From a virus (taxonomy: Duplodnaviria > Heunggongvirae > Uroviricota > Caudoviricetes), in the IMG/VR virus record IMGVR_UViG_2737471848_000011: DNA of 6,707 nt; one strand, written 5' to 3'. Within the stretch, counting starts at the first letter, position 1, and the number at the start of each line of letters is the position of its first letter. A program made the position numbers and the translations under genes. The notes under the pieces are model-generated. The model did not search any database and was not told the origin of the DNA. It was given only the letters and a program-made list of their open reading frames with translations. Positions 685-6,707 of the stretch are shown here, in pieces.

Positions 685-2499
685 TTAATTTTTGCCATCG
701 TCATTTGTGACCGATGCACATGAGGGCATCCAGTCTTCTGAATCCTCTGTCAGTATCACGTTTGAACGCAAGCCATGCTTCGTTTTCCGTTTCATATACT
801 CCCTGCCGTATTCCGCCATTGCCCCTGGCATATCCTTACCGAAGCGTGTCAGTGTTACGGGCTTACCGAATCCGTGTGCCCTCATATACGCCAGATAGGC
901 GTGATAGAGATACCTGCGCGGGCTGAACGGAATAATTTCAGCATTACCCACTAACAGGCCATCGCACATTACCGACGACATGAGATAGCCGCAGAAGTCC
1001 ACCAGCGAATCGCCCTCGCGTTTTATCACCAGGGCTTCTTCTGATTTCTGCTGCTCATATAGCAGGCGTTTAGCTTCGTCCTGGTCAGAAAAGCGTGTAA
1101 GCAGGTGGCGAATCACTACCGCCAGCTCTCCTTCTATTTTTTCAGCCAGCATAGGGTCACGTTCGTTCTCCGGTACAACTTCCGAAAAATTGAATATTAC
1201 CCGACGACGTGATATCCCACCGCTGCGGTCACTGAATGACATGGCGTTATTGTTCACCGCCAGCACGACCGCCTGAATGCGTGTTGAGTAGGGGGCTTTA
1301 TGTTTCGGGTCGATTGCCACCTTATCACCGCCTGTAATGGCCTTAATCCCTGCACCATCACCAGCGTAACGGGTCATATCCGGCATGATAATCAGCGAAA
1401 AGCCAACCACTAACGCACGTTCCCTGGCATCTTCCAGCGCCTTCATGCTTGCCGATACCGTGTTGGCCTTACCCGCCAGCATAGTGCAAATCTCCGCCAT
1501 TACGCTTTTACCGCTTCCACCCGGCCCCGTTACCTCAAGAAATAACTGCCAGTCGTACCGATTCGCCAGCACCATGAATAACGCCGCCAGTACGCGATCT
1601 GCCTTGCGGTCATTCTCAGCCACCGAACGGCGCAACCACTTCCAGAAATTCGGCGCATGTGTTGCCAGCGTTTCCCCCTCTGCTGGTGGGCTGAAAGGTA
1701 ATTCACTGGCAATTAACAACCAGTCGTTTTTGTTATGCTCCCGAAAATTACCAGTTCTGGTATCAAATACCCCGTTACTGAATCCAATCAGGTTACGGGC
1801 TGTATTCCCCATTACGGGCAAACTTAACTTCATGGTATCGACCGCCGATTTGATGGCGTTCTGCGAATAGCTGATTTCCGCATCAATAAAAATCTGCGCC
1901 ATAGTCCGCTGTAACTCTTTATCCTGTACCGGCTCCCATACAACACCGTTGTAGTGGTGAACGGTGTCAGAATCCGCATTGATTGCCAGTTCACCGCCAT
2001 AATGTGCCAGGAGAACTTCGCCGCGCTGGCTTGCTCCCATCTGGTTAAGTGCCAGTGGTGTCGCGCTGTCTTCTGTTTTTTTCTTTGCCGGAAACCGGAT
2101 AATCAGTCCGTCATCAATGTTTTTACGCTCACGGGCAAGGTATTCACGCCAGTTCTCACACTTCTGGCTGTGCATGCCATCAGGGTAATAATTCGCATTC
2201 TGTATACTTGCCGCCGCCAGCTTCTGACCAATTGCCTTAACCATTACAGGATCTAACTGTCCGGCTCTGAATATGCGCGCGGATGTGCGCCCATCAGGCA
2301 CTATTTGCAGATTTCCGATCTCTTTCAGTTGTTCATCAGCCAGCACAACAGGTGGCTCATTATCTCCAGCCATACGCGCATCGTGTTCCTGCCATTGTTT
2401 CGCGTGTGCCCAGGCATCACTACCCGCGAAAATAATTACCTCTGTGTCTTTGTGTTTTATTCCGCGTGGCTGTTTTTTTACGTTCGGTGCCAGTTTCAT
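685..2499 (-). CDS. P4 alpha-like replication protein (putative primase-associated SF3/D5-type helicase), 604 aa
   Basis: Long ORF with Walker A GPGGSGKS at aa 325-332, followed by a hydrophobic stretch then acidic residues (LVVGFSLIIMPDM) and an N-rich motif (VLAVNNNAM), as in SF3 helicases of phage/plasmid primases. Start ATG at 2499..2497 overlaps the stop of the upstream 80-aa gene (ATGA) and is preceded by a G6A6 tract. The iteron origin lies immediately downstream. Confidence 0.88.
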   Translation of the reverse strand: MKLAPNVKKQPRGIKHKDTEVIIFAGSDAWAHAKQWQEHDARMAGDNEPPVVLADEQLKEIGNLQIVPDGRTSARIFRAGQLDPVMVKAIGQKLAAASIQNANYYPDGMHSQKCENWREYLARERKNIDDGLIIRFPAKKKTEDSATPLALNQMGASQRGEVLLAHYGGELAINADSDTVHHYNGVVWEPVQDKELQRTMAQIFIDAEISYSQNAIKSAVDTMKLSLPVMGNTARNLIGFSNGVFDTRTGNFREHNKNDWLLIASELPFSPPAEGETLATHAPNFWKWLRRSVAENDRKADRVLAALFMVLANRYDWQLFLEVTGPGGSGKSVMAEICTMLAGKANTVSASMKALEDARERALVVGFSLIIMPDMTRYAGDGAGIKAITGGDKVAIDPKHKAPYSTRIQAVVLAVNNNAMSFSDRSGGISRRRVIFNFSEVVPENERDPMLAEKIEGELAVVIRHLLTRFSDQDEAKRLLYEQQKSEEALVIKREGDSLVDFCGYLMSSVMCDGLLVGNAEIIPFSPRRYLYHAYLAYMRAHGFGKPVTLTRFGKDMPGAMAEYGREYMKRKTKHGLRSNVILTEDSEDWMPSCASVTNDDGKN

Positions 2500-2738
2500 T
2501 TTTTCCCCCCTGCAACCAGCATTTCACGGATTTTGCGGATATAGCTTGCTGCACGTTTTTGATTTACGGCTTTATAATGGTCCACCAGCGTAAAATCACG
2601 GCGGTAGGTGATATTGCCTGGCGTAACGTGACGAATAACCACTCGTCCCCCACGTCTGGTGTCGCGGTAAATATCTCCGAGTCTGATTTCAGGCCGAGAG
2701 AGACCGCTGGCAGTAAAGCCAGAATTTTTCTTTTTCAT
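2496..2738 (-). CDS. Hypothetical small basic protein (80 aa), translationally coupled to the replication gene
   Basis: ATG at 2738..2736 preceded by AGGAAA; ends GGG GGG AAA AAA TGA with the TGA overlapping the alpha-like ATG. Basic composition (many R/K). This position is typical of small accessory proteins upstream of primases in P4-like elements; the family is not confirmed. Confidence 0.55.
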   Translation of the reverse strand: MKKKNSGFTASGLSRPEIRLGDIYRDTRRGGRVVIRHVTPGNITYRRDFTLVDHYKAVNQKRAASYIRKIREMLVAGGKK

Positions 2739-2768
2739 AGTTTTATTTTCCTGTCAGCAGTTCCGGTT

Positions 2769-2942
2769 TTATTTCCGCACGAATACAGAGTTCAGAAAAA
2801 ATTCAGGAGAACCAACAATCTCATTACTTTTCAGTCGGCATTGTGATTTCACTTTCCCTTTATCCAGGTAAACCAGTACGCGTCCGGTGAAATCATCTGG
2901 CACATTAAGCACTACGGGTACATGCGCTTCATGATTATGCAT
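2769..2942 (-). CDS. Putative small protein, 57 aa (MHNHEAHVPVVLNVPDDFTGRVLVYLDKGKVKSQCRLKSNEIVGSPEFFLNSVFVRK), not in the ORF track
   Basis: Hand-translated. ATG at 2942..2940 preceded by GGAGGA at about 8 nt; the start overlaps the TAA stop of the 197-aa gene with the same ATGCATAA junction seen at the 74-aa/197-aa boundary; stop TAA at 2771..2769. Fills an otherwise empty 196-bp gap in the operon. Confidence 0.45.
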   Translation of the reverse strand: MHNHEAHVPVVLNVPDDFTGRVLVYLDKGKVKSQCRLKSNEIVGSPEFFLNSVFVRK

Positions 2943-3528
2943 GGCTTACATCCTCCGTGAATTTTCTTCTGTAACGCGTCTCTGCCACATATTCCGCATA
3001 GTCCGACGCAATACTAAGAATCATTTCACCCTCTGACTTGTAGCCACTGGTATTGATAAGAAAATATGCAGCTTTCATCATGTCAGCAACGCTCAACAAT
3101 GCGCCCGCTGCATCTTCCGGTGCGCCATCAAATTCCCGTTTCAGGGAATTAAAACGATCATCACGCATGTTTACCCCCCCCTGAATGACCTGATAACCGC
3201 AACTGGTCAGCAATTCGATAAATTCCGGCAGTGTGCCGAAACAGCAATCATCACGCAGACGTTCGCGGGATACTTCAACGCCGTTTTCGTAGTGACTCAC
3301 CATGCGTCCGGTAAAATGCAGATCATCATCGTGATGGCACGTTGACGGCTTAATCAGTCGCGCACGTTCCGCCAGTTCCAGCAATGCTTCAACGCTTCCG
3401 GCAATTGCACCATCCGGCAGGTGATAATTACTTACCACGCGTCCATTCTCCACGTTGACCAGTAGCTGCCCGGAAAATATCTCGTCAAACTGAATGCTGT
3501 TAAGGTCAGAAATTGACAGGTTATGCAT
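2935..3528 (-). CDS. Hypothetical protein Z, 197 aa (unknown function; Cys/His-rich patches CHHDDD and DDCCFG)
   Basis: Start chosen at ATG 3528..3526 (MHNLSISDL...) because AGGAGG lies 6 nt upstream; the track ORF begins 6 codons earlier with no SD. The start overlaps the stop of the upstream 74-aa gene (ATGCATAA). Contains a G8 homopolymer at 3174-3181. Confidence 0.7.
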   Translation of the reverse strand: MHNLSISDLNSIQFDEIFSGQLLVNVENGRVVSNYHLPDGAIAGSVEALLELAERARLIKPSTCHHDDDLHFTGRMVSHYENGVEVSRERLRDDCCFGTLPEFIELLTSCGYQVIQGGVNMRDDRFNSLKREFDGAPEDAAGALLSVADMMKAAYFLINTSGYKSEGEMILSIASDYAEYVAETRYRRKFTEDVSHA

Positions 3529-3745
3529 GGTGCACCTCCTGCACATCAGCCATGATAATTTTTCCGGCCTTATCCAGTGCCTGATCGGCTTTTAGCTGCA
3601 CAAATGCTAAATAATGGAAGATGCATTCTGATTCTCTGGCTGCGTGTTTATGCGCCACACCAGCGATAGCAGAAATCTCAATAAGTGAATCCATCAGCGT
3701 TTTGATAGCGTCTACCGCTGCATCAGGCCATGTTGCATTACACAT
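3521..3745 (-). CDS. Hypothetical protein Y, 74 aa
   Basis: The track ORF starts at a GTG (3787); the internal ATG at 3745..3743 has GGGGGTGG upstream and overlaps the stop of gene X by 8 nt (ATGTGTAA), so I call the shorter form. Stop TAA at 3523..3521 overlaps the Z start. Confidence 0.5.
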   Translation of the reverse strand: MCNATWPDAAVDAIKTLMDSLIEISAIAGVAHKHAARESECIFHYLAFVQLKADQALDKAGKIIMADVQEVHHA

Positions 3746-3935
3746 GTTCCACCCCCTGACGAATACGGGCGGCGAATACAGCAACACAACCTGACGGGCA
3801 ACGGCTACGCGCTTCGCGTTCCGTCCAGGCGGTTACGTGGATGATTTGAGATTCTCCGGCACTCAGTGCCAGAAAACGCCACACAAAGGCCGTTTGTGTG
3901 TGTACAAGGTGTGGTATATGATTTACAGCAACCAT
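3738..3935 (-). CDS. Hypothetical protein X, 65 aa, first gene of the leftward operon
   Basis: ATG at 3935..3933 with AGGAG 5 nt upstream; the track ORF extends upstream to 4010 without an SD. Lies downstream of a predicted leftward sigma70 promoter. Confidence 0.5.
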   Translation of the reverse strand: MVAVNHIPHLVHTQTAFVWRFLALSAGESQIIHVTAWTEREARSRCPSGCVAVFAARIRQGVEHV

Positions 3936-3963: not shown

Positions 3964-4008
3964 GAAGCCCTGCGAGTGGTAACGACACTTGCGGGGCTTT
4001 GTCTTTTC
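3964..4008 (+). other. Plus-strand-specific hairpin followed by a U-rich tract (terminator-like), within the leader region of the leftward operon
   Basis: Arms AGCCCTGCGAGT (3966-3977) and ACTTGCGGGGCT (3987-3998) pair over 12 bp with two G-U wobbles on the plus-strand RNA, loop 9 nt, then TTGTCTTTTC. On the minus-strand RNA the two wobbles become C-A mismatches, so the structure is asymmetric. Confidence 0.35.
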
Positions 4009-4026: not shown

Positions 4027-4115
4027 GGTGTCAGCCACTATATTAGTAACAGGTGTCAGCCACGTCAATAGTGTTTTTCCGTTTTCTTGTGTGTATACTG
4101 TCAGCCACCTAATAA
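4027..4115. promoter_or_regulatory. Divergent promoter/operator region with three direct repeats of TGTCAGCCAC
   Basis: Repeats at 4029-4038, 4054-4063, 4099-4108 (the first two extend to GGTGTCAGCCAC). Leftward promoter on the minus strand: -35 TTGACG (4068..4063), 17-nt spacer, -10 TAATAT (4045..4040); repeat 2 fills the spacer and repeat 1 covers the predicted transcription start. Rightward candidates: -10 TATACT (4094-4099) or -35 TTGTGT (4087-4092) with -10 TAATAA (4110-4115), either overlapping repeat 3. Confidence 0.5.
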
Positions 4116-4129
4116 CGAGGAAATCAGAT

Positions 4130-4309
4130 ATGGCAACAAAAGCAGTTAATGCAAAATCCAAAAAGCTTGAGGCTCGAGTACCACACGCAATAGCTGATGC
4201 TGTAGAAAATTTAAAGGAAGATGGCGAAAGTACAGGGCAATTTATCGTTTCGGCACTTGAAGGCGAGATCAAACGCCGCCAGCGTCGCAAGGCCAAAGAG
4301 CAGGAATAG
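4130..4309 (+). CDS. Small ribbon-helix-helix-like DNA-binding protein (59 aa), putative repressor of the switch
   Basis: ATG at 4130 with GAGG about 9 nt upstream; the longer track ORF (from 3989) has no SD and overlaps the promoter region. MATKAVNAKSKKLEARVPHAIADAVENLKEDGESTGQFIVSALEGEIKRRQRRKAKEQE fits a beta-strand (KKLEARV), helix A, G-x-S/T turn, helix B pattern with a basic tail. It is the only plus-strand gene and is followed by an intrinsic terminator. Confidence 0.6.
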   Translation: MATKAVNAKSKKLEARVPHAIADAVENLKEDGESTGQFIVSALEGEIKRRQRRKAKEQE

Positions 4310-4397
4310 CCCACCAGCAAGCCAGCACACTGATCACATTGCCCACCAGCCAACAAATCGCTATGATGTTTGGGCTTATGTTTAGTGTTTTCCCATT

Positions 4398-4431
4398 GGC
4401 GACCTCTGATCCGGGTCGCCTTTGTTTTGTC
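4398..4431 (+). terminator. Rho-independent terminator of the RHH gene
   Basis: GGCGACC (4398-4404) / GGTCGCC (4414-4420) 7-bp GC-rich stem, 9-nt loop, followed by TTTGTTTTGTC. The reverse complement has no U-tract, so it is plus-strand specific. Confidence 0.6.
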
Positions 4432-5008
4432 ACTGAATGCGGTTGCCAAAGTAAAACTCAGGCTGATATTCACGTATCAGCCTTTTTTCTTCTTCCTCCA
4501 GCTCACGCTTTTTGCGCTTACATGCCTGTAGCTCCCTCCCCTTCTGACTAGCACTTAACTGATATTGCTCTTTACGGCGAGAAAAGTCCTGTAATGCGCC
4601 CCACGGGATACCATAAGCCCCCGTTTTTCTGATTCCTGGTATCACATTCCTGAATACCCAGTTACTGAAACGATGGGCGAATGTGCCTTGCGTCGTTGCT
4701 TTGCGGCTACGGGCTATTAGTTTGTAGAAACCTGACTCAGAGATAATGCTCATATTCTGATTTCCTCCTGGGGTGTAAGTTAAATTTACTCCCTTTTCAT
4801 CATCATCAAGCATCTGCAACGCCGTACGCGAATTGGTCAGTTCCAGCGCAGCGCAGACATCCTTTGCAACAAACCACGGATCGCCGTTCAGATACACCAC
4901 GCGAACGTTCACACTATCAAAGCGCAGAACGACCAGATCACGAAAATCACAGATTTTTTTTACATGACGTGCGTCACCCTTGCCCGTCACGGCAATATTT
5001 TTATTCAT
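4430..5008 (-). CDS. BRO-N domain protein (phage antirepressor-like), 192 aa
   Basis: Sequence DPWFVAKDVCAALELTNSRTALQMLDDDEKG...IISESGFYKLIARSRKATTQGTFAHRFSNWVFRNVIPGIRKTGAYG matches the conserved Bro-N pattern (PWFVAKDV, DEDEK, SGLY-LI-SRK, W-VLP-IRKTG-Y). C-terminal about 50 aa is charged and coiled-coil-like. ATG at 5008..5006 with GAGGT upstream; contains an A8 tract at codons 16-19. Confidence 0.8.
   Translation of the reverse strand: MNKNIAVTGKGDARHVKKICDFRDLVVLRFDSVNVRVVYLNGDPWFVAKDVCAALELTNSRTALQMLDDDEKGVNLTYTPGGNQNMSIISESGFYKLIARSRKATTQGTFAHRFSNWVFRNVIPGIRKTGAYGIPWGALQDFSRRKEQYQLSASQKGRELQACKRKKRELEEEEKRLIREYQPEFYFGNRIQ
4459..4490 (+). terminator. Second hairpin plus T6 tract (backup terminator) embedded in the 3' end of the BRO-N coding region
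   Basis: GGCTGATA (4461-4468) / TATCAGCC (4475-4482) perfect 8-bp stem, 6-nt loop, then TTTTTT (4483-4488). Confidence 0.4.
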
Positions 5009-5028: not shown

Positions 5029-5053
5029 AAAAAACCCCGCATTGCACGCGGGG
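5029..5053 (-). terminator. Rho-independent terminator downstream of the alpA-like gene
   Basis: On the minus strand: CCCCGC, 7-nt loop, GCGGGG (plus 5035-5053) followed by TTTTTT (plus A-run 5029-5034). On the plus strand the stem is followed by tatgaaag, so it acts only on leftward transcripts. Confidence 0.6.
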
Positions 5054-5067
5054 TATGAAAGATATTA

Positions 5068-5292
5068 TTAGTGGGGATTGGCTTGTTCTCGTTGTTTATC
5101 TAACCATGCTTCTACATCTCTACGGTGCCAGGTATGTCGTCGTCCAATTCTGAACGGCTGAGGAAAACCATTATTCTCATCTTTCCAGAAATTGATGAAT
5201 GCACTCATTGCTCCATATCGCAAGATTTTCATTACGTCTTTAGTAAATAAAATATCTTCATTGGTATTCATTTGCTGAACCTCCTCAACCAT
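5068..5292 (-). CDS. alpA: AlpA/Vis-like small DNA-binding regulator (excisionase/activator family), 74 aa
   Basis: Small ORF immediately downstream of, and overlapping, the integrase (ATGGTTGA junction). Helix-turn-helix-like core ILFTKDVMKILRYGAMSAFINFWKDENNGFPQPFRIGRRHTWHRRDVEAWL resembles AlpA-family proteins paired with P4-type integrases. Confidence 0.75.
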   Translation of the reverse strand: MVEEVQQMNTNEDILFTKDVMKILRYGAMSAFINFWKDENNGFPQPFRIGRRHTWHRRDVEAWLDKQREQANPH

Positions 5293-6523
5293 TTACTACT
5301 CTTAAACCTTTCATACCACCGGATCTATTAATTACCCCTTTTCTCGCATCATCAAAAAAATCACCGACCCATTGCATCATGATCTTACGCTGTTCTAGAT
5401 AAATAGTTCTATTATAAATATCTCTTATTTTATCACCACTTTTATGCGCCAATGCAGCCTCGATTACATCGGGGTTAAATCCCTCCTCATTTAAAAGCGT
5501 ACTCCACATTGAACGAAAACCATGTAACGTTACAATCCCTTTGAACTTACTGGCAGCAATTGGGGTCTTGATAGTATTCCTCCCCATAGGCGCATCTTTT
5601 GTTCTGGAGGAAAAAAACACATAACGCCCTCTTTTTATTTCCTGCATTGTTCTGAGGATACTAATAGCCTGTGATGACAAGGGAACAACATGTTCACGAT
5701 GGCATTTCATTTTATGCGCGGGGATAATCCACAAGCCAGAATCAAAATCAATCTCTGACCACTCTGCTTTAATCGCCTCACCTGGCCTGACCATTGTCAA
5801 TATCTGGAATAAAAGTGCATTATGAGCTATTTGATAGGTATGAGGCACACTATCCCACCAGCTCAGAAATTCAGGCAATCTTTCAACAGGTAGTGCTGCT
5901 AATGATTTATTTTTCTTTCCTGTGAATGCAGTCTTTATCTTAAGTAATGGATTTGCTTTCAATGCTCCACAATTTACAGCATAATTCATAATTTCATTTA
6001 ATCTTGATATTAATTTTTTTTGCAACGCATTCTTATCGGATACGGCATCCAGAGCATTAATAGCTACTGGTGCTGTAATTTTTTCTATACTGTACTTACC
6101 AAAGAAAGGAACAAGATATTTGTATACTTCATATTCGATATTATACAGCGTAGGTTTCCGCAATTCAGATCCCTTTTTAAAAGCGAACCATGCATTAGCA
6201 ACAGCTTCAAATGTCTGTAGATTTTTTAGTGACATCTCAATTTTACGATTTTTCTTCTCCGTCACTGGATCAACTCCACGTGCAATCATTCGCCGAAGTT
6301 CATCACGTACTTCCCGTGCTTCCGCGAGTGAGAATTCAGGAAAACGTCCTATCGTGTATGTCTGCCGTTTCTTCGTTATCGGATGGCTATAACGGAAACG
6401 CCACACTTTCCCACCGGCTTTACTCACATTCAGCAATAAACCGAACCCATCATAAACGGCATAGTCCTTTTCACGTGGTTTCATCCCCTTAACTTCAGTC
6501 ACGGTTAATGGCTTTACCGACAT
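5285..6523 (-). CDS. int: Tyrosine recombinase, P4-family integrase, 412 aa
   Basis: N-terminus MSVKPLTVTEVKGMKPREKDYAVYDGFGLLLNVSKAGGKVWRFRY matches the P4-type integrase arm-binding domain; C-terminal catalytic signatures HGFRSMWSTLLNE (HxxR) and a tyrosine region DIYNRTIYLEQR. ATG at 6523..6521 with GAGGG upstream. Confidence 0.93.
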   Translation of the reverse strand: MSVKPLTVTEVKGMKPREKDYAVYDGFGLLLNVSKAGGKVWRFRYSHPITKKRQTYTIGRFPEFSLAEAREVRDELRRMIARGVDPVTEKKNRKIEMSLKNLQTFEAVANAWFAFKKGSELRKPTLYNIEYEVYKYLVPFFGKYSIEKITAPVAINALDAVSDKNALQKKLISRLNEIMNYAVNCGALKANPLLKIKTAFTGKKNKSLAALPVERLPEFLSWWDSVPHTYQIAHNALLFQILTMVRPGEAIKAEWSEIDFDSGLWIIPAHKMKCHREHVVPLSSQAISILRTMQEIKRGRYVFFSSRTKDAPMGRNTIKTPIAASKFKGIVTLHGFRSMWSTLLNEEGFNPDVIEAALAHKSGDKIRDIYNRTIYLEQRKIMMQWVGDFFDDARKGVINRSGGMKGLRVVNG

Positions 6524-6707
6524 CTATCGCCCTCATTTTTTAGTCCGTCATGTAGTCCATTCAAGCCAATAACAAGCGATAAACTAACTCATTATCAAGC
6601 AAAGAGAGGAAACTCATAAAATCACAACTCATTGAAAAGACTATGAAACGACACCAGAACATACAAACAGGTAAGAAATGTACCCTACATCCAAAATGAC
6701 GCAATCC

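Follow-up and report, generated by a model that had tools for sequence, protein, structure and literature searches.

Do Gram-negative phage-inducible chromosomal islands (PICIs), a group of phage satellites, encode a repressor that keeps them quiet while integrated? Whether a global repressor exists in these islands 'is unclear' (PMC6092414). The question is raised by a 6,707-nt stretch of DNA, hereafter the window, from IMG/VR record IMGVR_UViG_2737471848_000011 (Caudoviricetes), which by its gene content is from a Gram-negative PICI. Only one island gene, ylcI, lies on the opposite strand; it encodes a 59-aa protein and faces the replication operon across a region that holds three copies of one 10-nt sequence. 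An earlier note on this DNA had proposed that the small protein binds these copies and represses both its own gene and the operon. We find that the ylcI product and the three sites, named O1 to O3, probably form an autoregulated repressor/operator immunity switch on the Icd-like/primase operon. We give this reading a probability of about 75%, and we infer binding and repression from sequence.

Three copies of one 10-mer in predicted divergent promoter cores

The sequence TGTCAGCCAC occurs exactly three times in the window, always on the plus strand (4029-4038, 4054-4063 and 4099-4108), with start-to-start gaps of 25 and 45 nt; no further exact copy was found in the 6,707 nt. None of 1000 dinucleotide-preserving shuffles of the window contained a 10-mer occurring three times within 100 nt. 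In the real window such a triple was found only for TGTCAGCCAC and for the iterons of a putative origin (494-660). Copies 1 and 2 extend to AGGTGTCAGCCAC. Comparison with relatives suggests that the functional unit is an 11-bp near-palindrome, GTG-N5-CAC, and the window site reads as GTGtC-A-GcCAC. The region between the two promoters and the ylcI gene is organized as follows:

4028-4038: predicted operator O1, GTGTCAGCCAC, exact copy, spanning about -5 to +6 of the predicted leftward start
4053-4063: predicted operator O2, GTGTCAGCCAC, exact copy, in the 17-nt spacer of the leftward promoter
4098-4108: predicted operator O3, CTGTCAGCCAC, exact 10-mer, on the TATACT of the rightward (ylcI) promoter
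4040..4068, minus strand: sigma-70-type promoter P_L, with TTGACG (4068..4063), a 17-nt spacer and TAATAT (4045..4040); 9/12 consensus matches
4094..4099, plus strand: TATACT, -10-like hexamer of the presumed promoter P_R, preceded by a T-rich tract and conserved in relatives
4117-4120, plus strand: ylcI ribosome-binding site GAGG
4130..4309, plus strand: ylcI-like gene, 59-aa predicted ribbon-helix-helix protein, proposed repressor

O2 occupies the -35-proximal part of the P_L spacer and has base 4063 in common with the -35 hexamer. O1 starts 2 nt downstream of the -10 hexamer, the start of P_L being predicted near 4033. On the ylcI side, O3 shares with TATACT (4094-4099) the final two bases of that hexamer, 31 nt upstream of the ATG at 4130. 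Both transcription starts, near 4033 for P_L and near 4106 for P_R, are predictions. The earlier note had placed the three copies in the 17-nt leftward spacer, over the predicted start and within the rightward promoter, and this placement was confirmed against TTGACG-17-TAATAT and TATACT, with exact copies at 4029, 4054 and 4099. Its description of them as direct repeats stood in part: the copies are repeated, but they are not obligate tandem direct repeats, because each is near-palindromic and the orientation of O1 can flip in relatives. A search for additional operators in the 24.5-kb locus formed by the element and its helper gave only one site with 1 mismatch, inside the SSB gene, which is probably due to chance.

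Promoter-like matches were no commoner in the whole window (11 found) than expected from shuffles (10.5), and the rightward promoter was not called by the scan, so both promoters need comparative support. P_L is backed by conservation and not by the scan alone: in 70 distinct upstream regions of relatives, the -35 hexamer (TTGACG, TTGAAG or TTGAGG) is immediately next to O2, and the same 70 have a TAnnnT hexamer between O1 and O2. The -10-like hexamer of P_R, which appears in relatives as TATACT, CATACT, TATATT, TATCAT, TATTAT or TATGAT, overlaps O3, is preceded by a T-tract and lies at a constant distance from the ATG in these 70 distinct relatives. Of the divergent promoter cores that had been claimed, the leftward -35/-10 pair is supported by scan and conservation; the rightward one is supported by its conserved -10-like hexamer and has no clear -35.

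A predicted ribbon-helix-helix protein

The 59-aa protein scores above the cut-off of NCBIfam NF041551, the YlcI/YnfO family (60.6 bits, the cut-off being 30; E 1.1e-16 over residues 9-50). RefSeq gives the same family name to the identical protein WP_000201455.1, and the protein also matches PHROG 949, annotated 'unknown function'. No Pfam family was found at E ≤0.1, DUF3950 (PF13132) included, and a profile search gave no relevant PDB chain; the protein matches neither a curated ribbon-helix-helix family nor a solved protein by sequence. The family is a compact one: among 1.84 billion 50%-identity representatives, 104 were recovered by profile at E ≤0.001, and 908 clusters were found in a 90%-identity database, essentially all from Enterobacterales. 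Searching 50,697 phage genomes with tblastn gave no match at E ≤0.01; the YlcI/YnfO relatives of prophages are too distant (20% identity to K-12 YlcI).

An AlphaFold model built from the single sequence was all-helical and of low confidence, and was replaced by an alignment-based model. With 75 family sequences, the predicted local distance difference test (pLDDT) score was 88.6, and the model has an extended N-terminus (1-18) and two helices (19-28 and 35-58). A strand followed by two helices within ~45 residues is the arrangement of ribbon-helix-helix proteins. Foldseek returned nothing from the PDB at E ≤0.001; the best structural match was CopA_SO, an antitoxin DNA-binding domain. AmrZ, SvtR, ORF56, omega, HicB and Arc were also matched, then MazE, NikR, TacA, TraM, ParD, PutA and TraY. 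The turn between the helices is G32-E33-S34, with G32 in 68/75 family members, E33 invariant and S or T at position 34 in 75/75. S10, R16 and P18 are invariant in the 75 members. Positions 12 (2.0 bits) and 14 (2.5 bits) are among the most variable of the protein; the polar positions 12, 14 and 16 alternate with positions 13 (L/V/I), 15 (A/V/T/S) and 17 (V/A/F/L/I). The protein is predicted to belong to the ribbon-helix-helix superfamily by structure and motifs, not by a curated sequence model. The fold that the earlier note had suspected thus agrees with the model, the turn and the alternating strand pattern.

At the end of helix 2, the sequence E-I-K-R-R-Q-R (residues 46-52, window 4265-4285) is invariant or nearly so in the 75 members, a conservation that exceeds the apparent needs of the fold. 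E. coli proteins of different operator classes share an identical tail, RRQRRKAKEQE, and the same downstream DNA. The shared tail and DNA point to a recombination breakpoint inside ylcI, or to a conserved contact with a partner or the DNA backbone.

Operator classes change with the predicted recognition strand

We compared 96 loci encoding relatives of the protein, taken from species-representative genomes and IMG/VR. A common architecture is present in 91 of them: a leader hairpin (see below) and the leftward promoter, together with sites at about -102, -77 and -32 relative to the ylcI ATG. An O1-type site with the same core lies 98-112 nt upstream of the ATG in 89/91 loci, in either orientation; several lineages have O1 inverted relative to O2 and O3. 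O2 is found at -76 to -78, always abutting (N)TCAA, the complement of the -35 hexamer. O3 has the core specific to its class and lies at -32, except in one class. That class is the E. coli class QTVAA (L049-L071 and similar loci), where the third site sits at -61, immediately beside the leftward -35; the number of sites is therefore kept while the geometry changes. This layout would give the presumed autoregulation a different geometry.

Within a locus, O1 and O2 differ by 0-1 nt in 89/91 loci, and O3 differs from O2 by at most 2 nt in 88/91, the recurrent difference being base 1, which is common to the -10 hexamer. Operators of foreign classes match the same region at best with at least 2 mismatches, usually 3-4. 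About 12 operator classes can be recognized, and the N5 core of all three sites changes together in each locus. Residues 11, 12 and 14 of the strand predicted to contact DNA correspond one-to-one to the class, as in the following:

K11, K12, E14: core TCAGC (window, other E. coli, Xenorhabdus, Pectobacterium polonicum)
K11, K12, D14: core TCAGA
K11, R12, D14: core TCGGA
Q11, T12, A14: core TTGAA
Q11, S12, T14: core TCTTA
Q11, M12, T14: core AAATA
Q11, A12, K14: core TGGCC
Q11, Q12, N14: core AATCG
L11, Q12, S14: core AACAC

Sliding identity between loci places mosaic breakpoints on either side of a segment comprising the operators and the 5′ part of ylcI. The link between protein and sites, which had been postulated from the window, is strengthened by this comparison, since over 91 loci the cores change in concert, and only the residues of YlcI that are predicted to face DNA change with them.

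Alternative explanations

The repeats could be bound by another protein of the island, with the small gene as a bystander; the candidates are AlpA, homologous to P4 Vis, the Bro-N protein and the Icd-like protein. Satellite promoters are indeed regulated by AlpA and Vis proteins (PMC6092414), Bro-N proteins can act as repressors (PMC10111431), and the PHROGs label for relatives of the Icd-like protein is 'transcriptional repressor'. However, AlpA, Bro, integrase, the Icd-like protein and the primase all assort independently of the operator class, and each candidate protein occurs 93-100% identical beside a different class. Thus, L063, L066 and L084 encode AlpA 99%, integrase 93-94% and Bro 83-95% identical to those of the window and belong to other classes. 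Similarly, the small open reading frames (ORFs), DUF4222 and primase of L073 and L075 are 99-100% identical to the window, and the Icd-like protein of L096 is 100% identical, in each case with another class. Conversely, Xenorhabdus loci share with the window only YlcI (75-79%) and an identical operator, with no detectable homologue of AlpA, Bro-N or the Icd-like protein. Changes of the operator core are matched only in the N-terminal strand of YlcI, and we consider a different binding protein very unlikely. It is even harder to maintain that the repeats are not protein sites at all but replication iterons, remnants of local duplication or chance occurrences in two AT-poor promoter cores. The separate iteron-rich origin (420-680) does contain a superficially similar unit, GGTGAACAGT, and O1 and O2 sit inside a 22-nt unit that is 82% repeated. 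Nevertheless, the triple was reproduced in 0/1000 shuffles, the three sites are identical per locus while the intervening sequence diverges, about 12 classes change jointly, and the sequence is preserved through orientation flips; the primase/Rep protein, for its part, assorts independently of class. An origin of this kind for the sites is extremely unlikely.

Alternatively, the protein may bind the sites and serve mainly as an antitoxin, as a centromere-binding partition adaptor of the ParG/omega type, or as an activator. The top structural match is the CopA_SO antitoxin domain, with ParD, MazE, TacA, HicB and omega also matched; one relative is labelled a HicB-family antitoxin by its source, and the first gene of the controlled operon encodes a predicted toxic cell-division inhibitor. 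For a toxin-antitoxin system a partner gene is lacking, as no credible plus-strand ORF follows ylcI in the window before the terminator at 4398-4420, which argues against an antitoxin; in one relative ylcI is followed by a 69-aa gene, which gave no Pfam match. A partition adaptor is disfavoured because no ParA- or ParF-type gene is present, and the element is integrative. Sites between -35 and -10 and over the start have the geometry of repression rather than activation. A main role other than repression therefore appears unlikely.

Several observations nevertheless weigh against a repressor/operator switch. P_R has no recognizable -35 hexamer and was not called by the promoter scanner. The spacing of O1 and O2 varies from 22 to 35 bp across relatives, so cooperative binding is not evident. 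In L006 (Xenorhabdus littoralis) a gene 79% identical to ylcI has an unrelated upstream region without operators, and in L010 (X. japonica) only one hybrid site, GGTGCCAGCCACC, is left after a deletion. AlpA is an activator, and its overexpression alone triggers replication of the prototype island EcCICFT073 (PMC6092414); because this suffices, the repressor, if real, is not the sole or dominant control. Finally, codons 11-14 are no more than ~100 bp away from the operators, and linkage alone would be expected to couple class and residues. Since linkage explains co-inheritance, the functional argument rests on the identity of the three sites in each locus and on the DNA-facing variation. Linkage does not explain either the identity of three separated sites amid diverging spacers or the variation at predicted DNA-facing positions.

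Proposed mechanism

We propose that the 59-aa protein binds, most likely as a dimer, and that each GTG-N5-CAC site would be recognized through a two-stranded sheet of residues ~11-17. Residues 12 and 14, aided by 11, would read the variable N5 core, and the invariant Arg16 probably reads the conserved outer GTG/CAC. Indirect support for such sequence-specific binding comes from the way the strand residues covary with the operator core. Dimers on O2 (spacer) and O1 (start) would exclude RNA polymerase from P_L and silence the Icd-like/primase operon, so that replication and late functions would stay quiet while the satellite is integrated. Binding at O3, in the -10/start region of the ylcI promoter, would add negative autoregulation. 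We infer repression of both promoters from the geometry of the sites and from the established behaviour of Arc, CopG and omega.

Two routes of induction may be envisaged. Leftward transcription, from alpA or from a late operon of the helper, could run antisense through ylcI and over the operators. Past alpA this would need antitermination, because an intrinsic terminator (5054..5034) directly follows this gene. Antitermination is an activity of lambdoid Q. It is also a known activity of Pseudomonas AlpA (PMC7969949, PMC9371919). Alternatively, the Bro-N protein could act as an anti-repressor. As a general route this seems less likely: an obligatory role of Bro-N as anti-repressor is weakened by the independent assortment of Bro and by EcCICFT073, which has only a remnant of it and can still be induced (PMC6092414).

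The surrounding island

Gram-negative PICIs are recognized by int, alpA, a primase gene with an origin downstream, mostly unidirectional genes, a size of ~10-20 kb and often a capsid gene; of these, the window has the integrase, alpA and primase genes and the iterons. An element 100% identical to it is present in E. coli UTME-3 (L001), where it adds SSB and a protease/capsid fusion gene. The UTME-3 element splits the terminase large-subunit gene of a lambdoid prophage (L001 3252-4382 and 14789-15793), with which it is co-oriented, and the right end of the window (~6688-6707) corresponds to the terminase-insertion side in L001. It is thus a helper-embedded PICI, a configuration defined by Tommasini et al. 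2023 (PMC10111431). The other features of the window are:

5285-6523, minus strand: integrase
5068-5271, minus strand: alpA, as annotated in an identical copy; convergent with ylcI
5054..5034, minus strand: strong intrinsic terminator, ACCCCGCGTGCAATGCGGGGT then TTTTTTG, within the 60 nt that separate alpA from the Bro-N gene
4430-5008, minus strand: Bro-N protein of the anti-repressor type, also convergent with ylcI (Pfam Bro-N E 5.6e-20; PHROG 2593, anti-repressor, E 4e-86)
4398..4420, plus strand: terminator-like hairpin then T-run, downstream of ylcI
3964..4000, minus strand: conserved leader hairpin of the P_L transcript, between P_L and the Icd-like start codon
3738..3935, minus strand: first P_L operon gene, encoding an Icd-like host cell division inhibitor (NCBIfam NF033153 E 1.1e-17; PGAP in L001)
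3521-3745, 2935-3528 and 2743-2942, minus strand: small ORFs of the P_L operon
2496-2738, minus strand: DUF4222, P_L operon
685-2499, minus strand: D5_N/P4-type primase-helicase, P_L operon (the rest of the operon lies within window 685..3745)

As had been suggested, the leftward promoter heads a replication operon, which runs from the Icd-like gene through the small ORFs and DUF4222 to the D5/P4-type primase. PGAP marks the small ORF 2743-2942 as frameshifted in an identical copy, and the 5′ part of the Icd-like gene contains a terminator-like hairpin (3900..3880, minus strand). The iteron-rich putative origin (420-680) lies downstream of the primase gene; here at least 6 repeats of GGTGAACAGT and its complement ACTGTTCACC occur, in both orientations. 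Two weak Rfam microRNA matches in 420-680 were discarded as artefacts of the inverted repeats of the origin.

The leader hairpin has 12 pairs, 8 of them with compensatory changes (27 sequences), and is followed on the minus strand by a conserved CTAACCA(C/A) motif. It is also found in L099 (~3065-3101), a PICI without ylcI, at the 3′ end of a Bro/ash-like gene. In L101 and L102, PGAP calls an 'ash family protein, incomplete' over the hairpin. The hairpin is not a canonical terminator in the sense direction. Its top (GTG-N6/7-CAC) was rejected as a fourth operator, its spacing being different and its sequence unchanged across operator classes. No Rfam family was found in the window or for the leader hairpin. 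The immunity-type RNAs C4 (RF01695), isrK (RF01394), c4-a1b1 and a CI-type RNA were not detected in the window at E ≤1, nor were C4, isrK or c4-a1b1 at gathering score in the satellite parts of L001, L002 and L099. isrK, C4 and c4-a1b1 were found in L001 at 22742-22940, in the helper prophage and not in the satellite, beside an ORF6N anti-repressor-type fragment; the small RNAs STnc100 and AgvB lie near these helper RNAs, at 21566-21821.

The non-coding region 4310-4430 contains two copies of GCCCACCAGC (4309, 4341), a promoter-like TTGCCC-17-TATGAT (4339-4367) and the hairpin at 4398-4420. Parts of ~4330-4428 match many E. coli genomes that have no match to the rest of the query, and in L101 a stretch of the 4310-4430 type follows the extra 69-aa gene downstream of ylcI. 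Possible readings of this stretch are a shared terminator module and a small RNA.

The same module in the prototype island

The prototype EcCICFT073 (NC_004431.1 1380473-1381052; L104 8474-9053) has this module too, located between alpA and the replication operon. Its YlcI, WP_000190587.1, belongs to class QALKA, with core TGGCC. Two GTGTGGCCCAC sites are located on a TTGACG-18-TATAGT promoter (10/12 consensus), and TATACT is followed by GTCCCCCAC; the hairpin and the Icd-like gene are also present. Bro is only a remnant in this island, and there is no equally strong terminator after alpA. The ylcI (C_RS30120) and Icd-like genes of EcCICFT073 bear recent, new-style locus tags, and both go undiscussed in the papers characterizing the regulation of the island. 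The ylcI module is also found in the tRNA-Pro PICI of O157:H7.

Induction by a helper phage, packaging and transfer have been demonstrated for EcCICFT073 (PMC6092414). Later surveys describe PICI genes as essentially unidirectional and mention only immunity RNAs of the Bro zone (PMC10111431); one survey names YlcI/YnfO only as a 'prophage-associated protein' in capsid-forming PICIs. In the literature searched, no paper gives YlcI/YnfO a function or describes a ribbon-helix-helix repressor in PICIs.

Relation to known systems

The type of mechanism, a ribbon-helix-helix repressor with promoter-embedded operators, is classical. The immI region of phage P22, with the divergent, overlapping promoters Pant and Pmnt controlled by Arc and Mnt, resembles the present locus in fold and in promoter-embedded operators, although no sequence family relationship is detectable. 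In P22 a single operator of 21 bp (Arc) or 17 bp (Mnt) is bound by a tetramer and ant is controlled, whereas here three separate 11-bp near-palindromes would control a satellite replication operon. CopG of pMV158 and omega of pSM19035 are likewise similar in fold and in promoter-embedded operators. Their sites are contiguous and they are co-transcribed with their targets, in contrast to 11-bp sites 22-45 bp apart and a gene divergent from the target operon.

Among satellites, P4 has a related gene order (int, alpA/vis, Bro/eta zone, Icd/kil-like, primase), in which the switch occupies the same position. The CI RNA of P4 acts on P_LE transcripts, and the bypass comes from the late promoter P_LL and includes vis. 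The constitutive early replication promoter of P4 is neutralized when the satellite is immune, and the upstream unit of vis, the alpA homologue, bypasses this block (PMC10111431). The switch proposed here would share this logic, with a strong early promoter kept silent in the integrated state and an alpA-containing unit upstream as the bypass on induction. The immunity factor of P4 is thus an RNA causing premature termination, whereas a divergently encoded protein is proposed here to block initiation. Stl (Rpr) of the Staphylococcus aureus pathogenicity islands (SaPIs) and other Gram-positive islands is likewise encoded divergently from the replication operon of the island, and YlcI would similarly keep the satellite quiescent. 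Stl is, however, a larger helix-turn-helix protein inactivated by a helper-phage protein, unlike the predicted ribbon-helix-helix protein considered here. Unlike Stl systems, Gram-negative PICIs require the activator AlpA (PMC6092414).

The DUF3950 proteins K-12 YlcI (prophage DLP12) and YnfO (Qin) fall into the same NCBIfam NF041551 as the window protein. By inspection, K-12 YlcI has the same N-terminal strand, proline and two helices; it is 20% identical to the window protein and matches Pfam DUF3950 at 72.8 bits, whereas the window protein does not. K-12 ylcI adjoins cos and nohD in a lambdoid prophage and is not part of a satellite switch. In DLP12 (L100 6252-6834) it is divergent from nohD, a homologue of the terminase small subunit, across cos; helper-type phages therefore carry distant relatives of the putative satellite repressor by their packaging site. 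The region upstream of K-12 ylcI contains CACGTCAA and a repeated CATCTAC.

Implications for PICI biology

A broader proposal is that YlcI-type proteins are the missing master or immunity repressors of many Gram-negative PICIs, including EcCICFT073 and helper-embedded and capsid-encoding islands. They would define at least 12 hetero-immune groups, exchange recognition strand and operators as a cassette, follow a P4-like two-promoter logic with a protein in place of the CI RNA and be induced when transcription dependent on AlpA, or late transcription of the helper, crosses the repressor gene in antisense and passes over its operators. We put this forward tentatively, its chances appearing to us somewhat below even. 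If it is true, loss of ylcI would lead to helper-independent replication and to Icd-type toxicity, as loss of Stl does in SaPIs.

The present analysis offers a concrete and testable function for an uncharacterized family (YlcI/YnfO, PHROG 949) and for its operators, together with a likely code of specificity from residue to base. In islands where no repressor had been recognized it provides a candidate, in a module that is present in the experimentally tractable EcCICFT073. If correct, YlcI would be the repressor half of the satellite switch, and immunity groups would be predicted among co-resident satellites. The family would then also provide a natural set of ~12 orthogonal small repressor/operator pairs.

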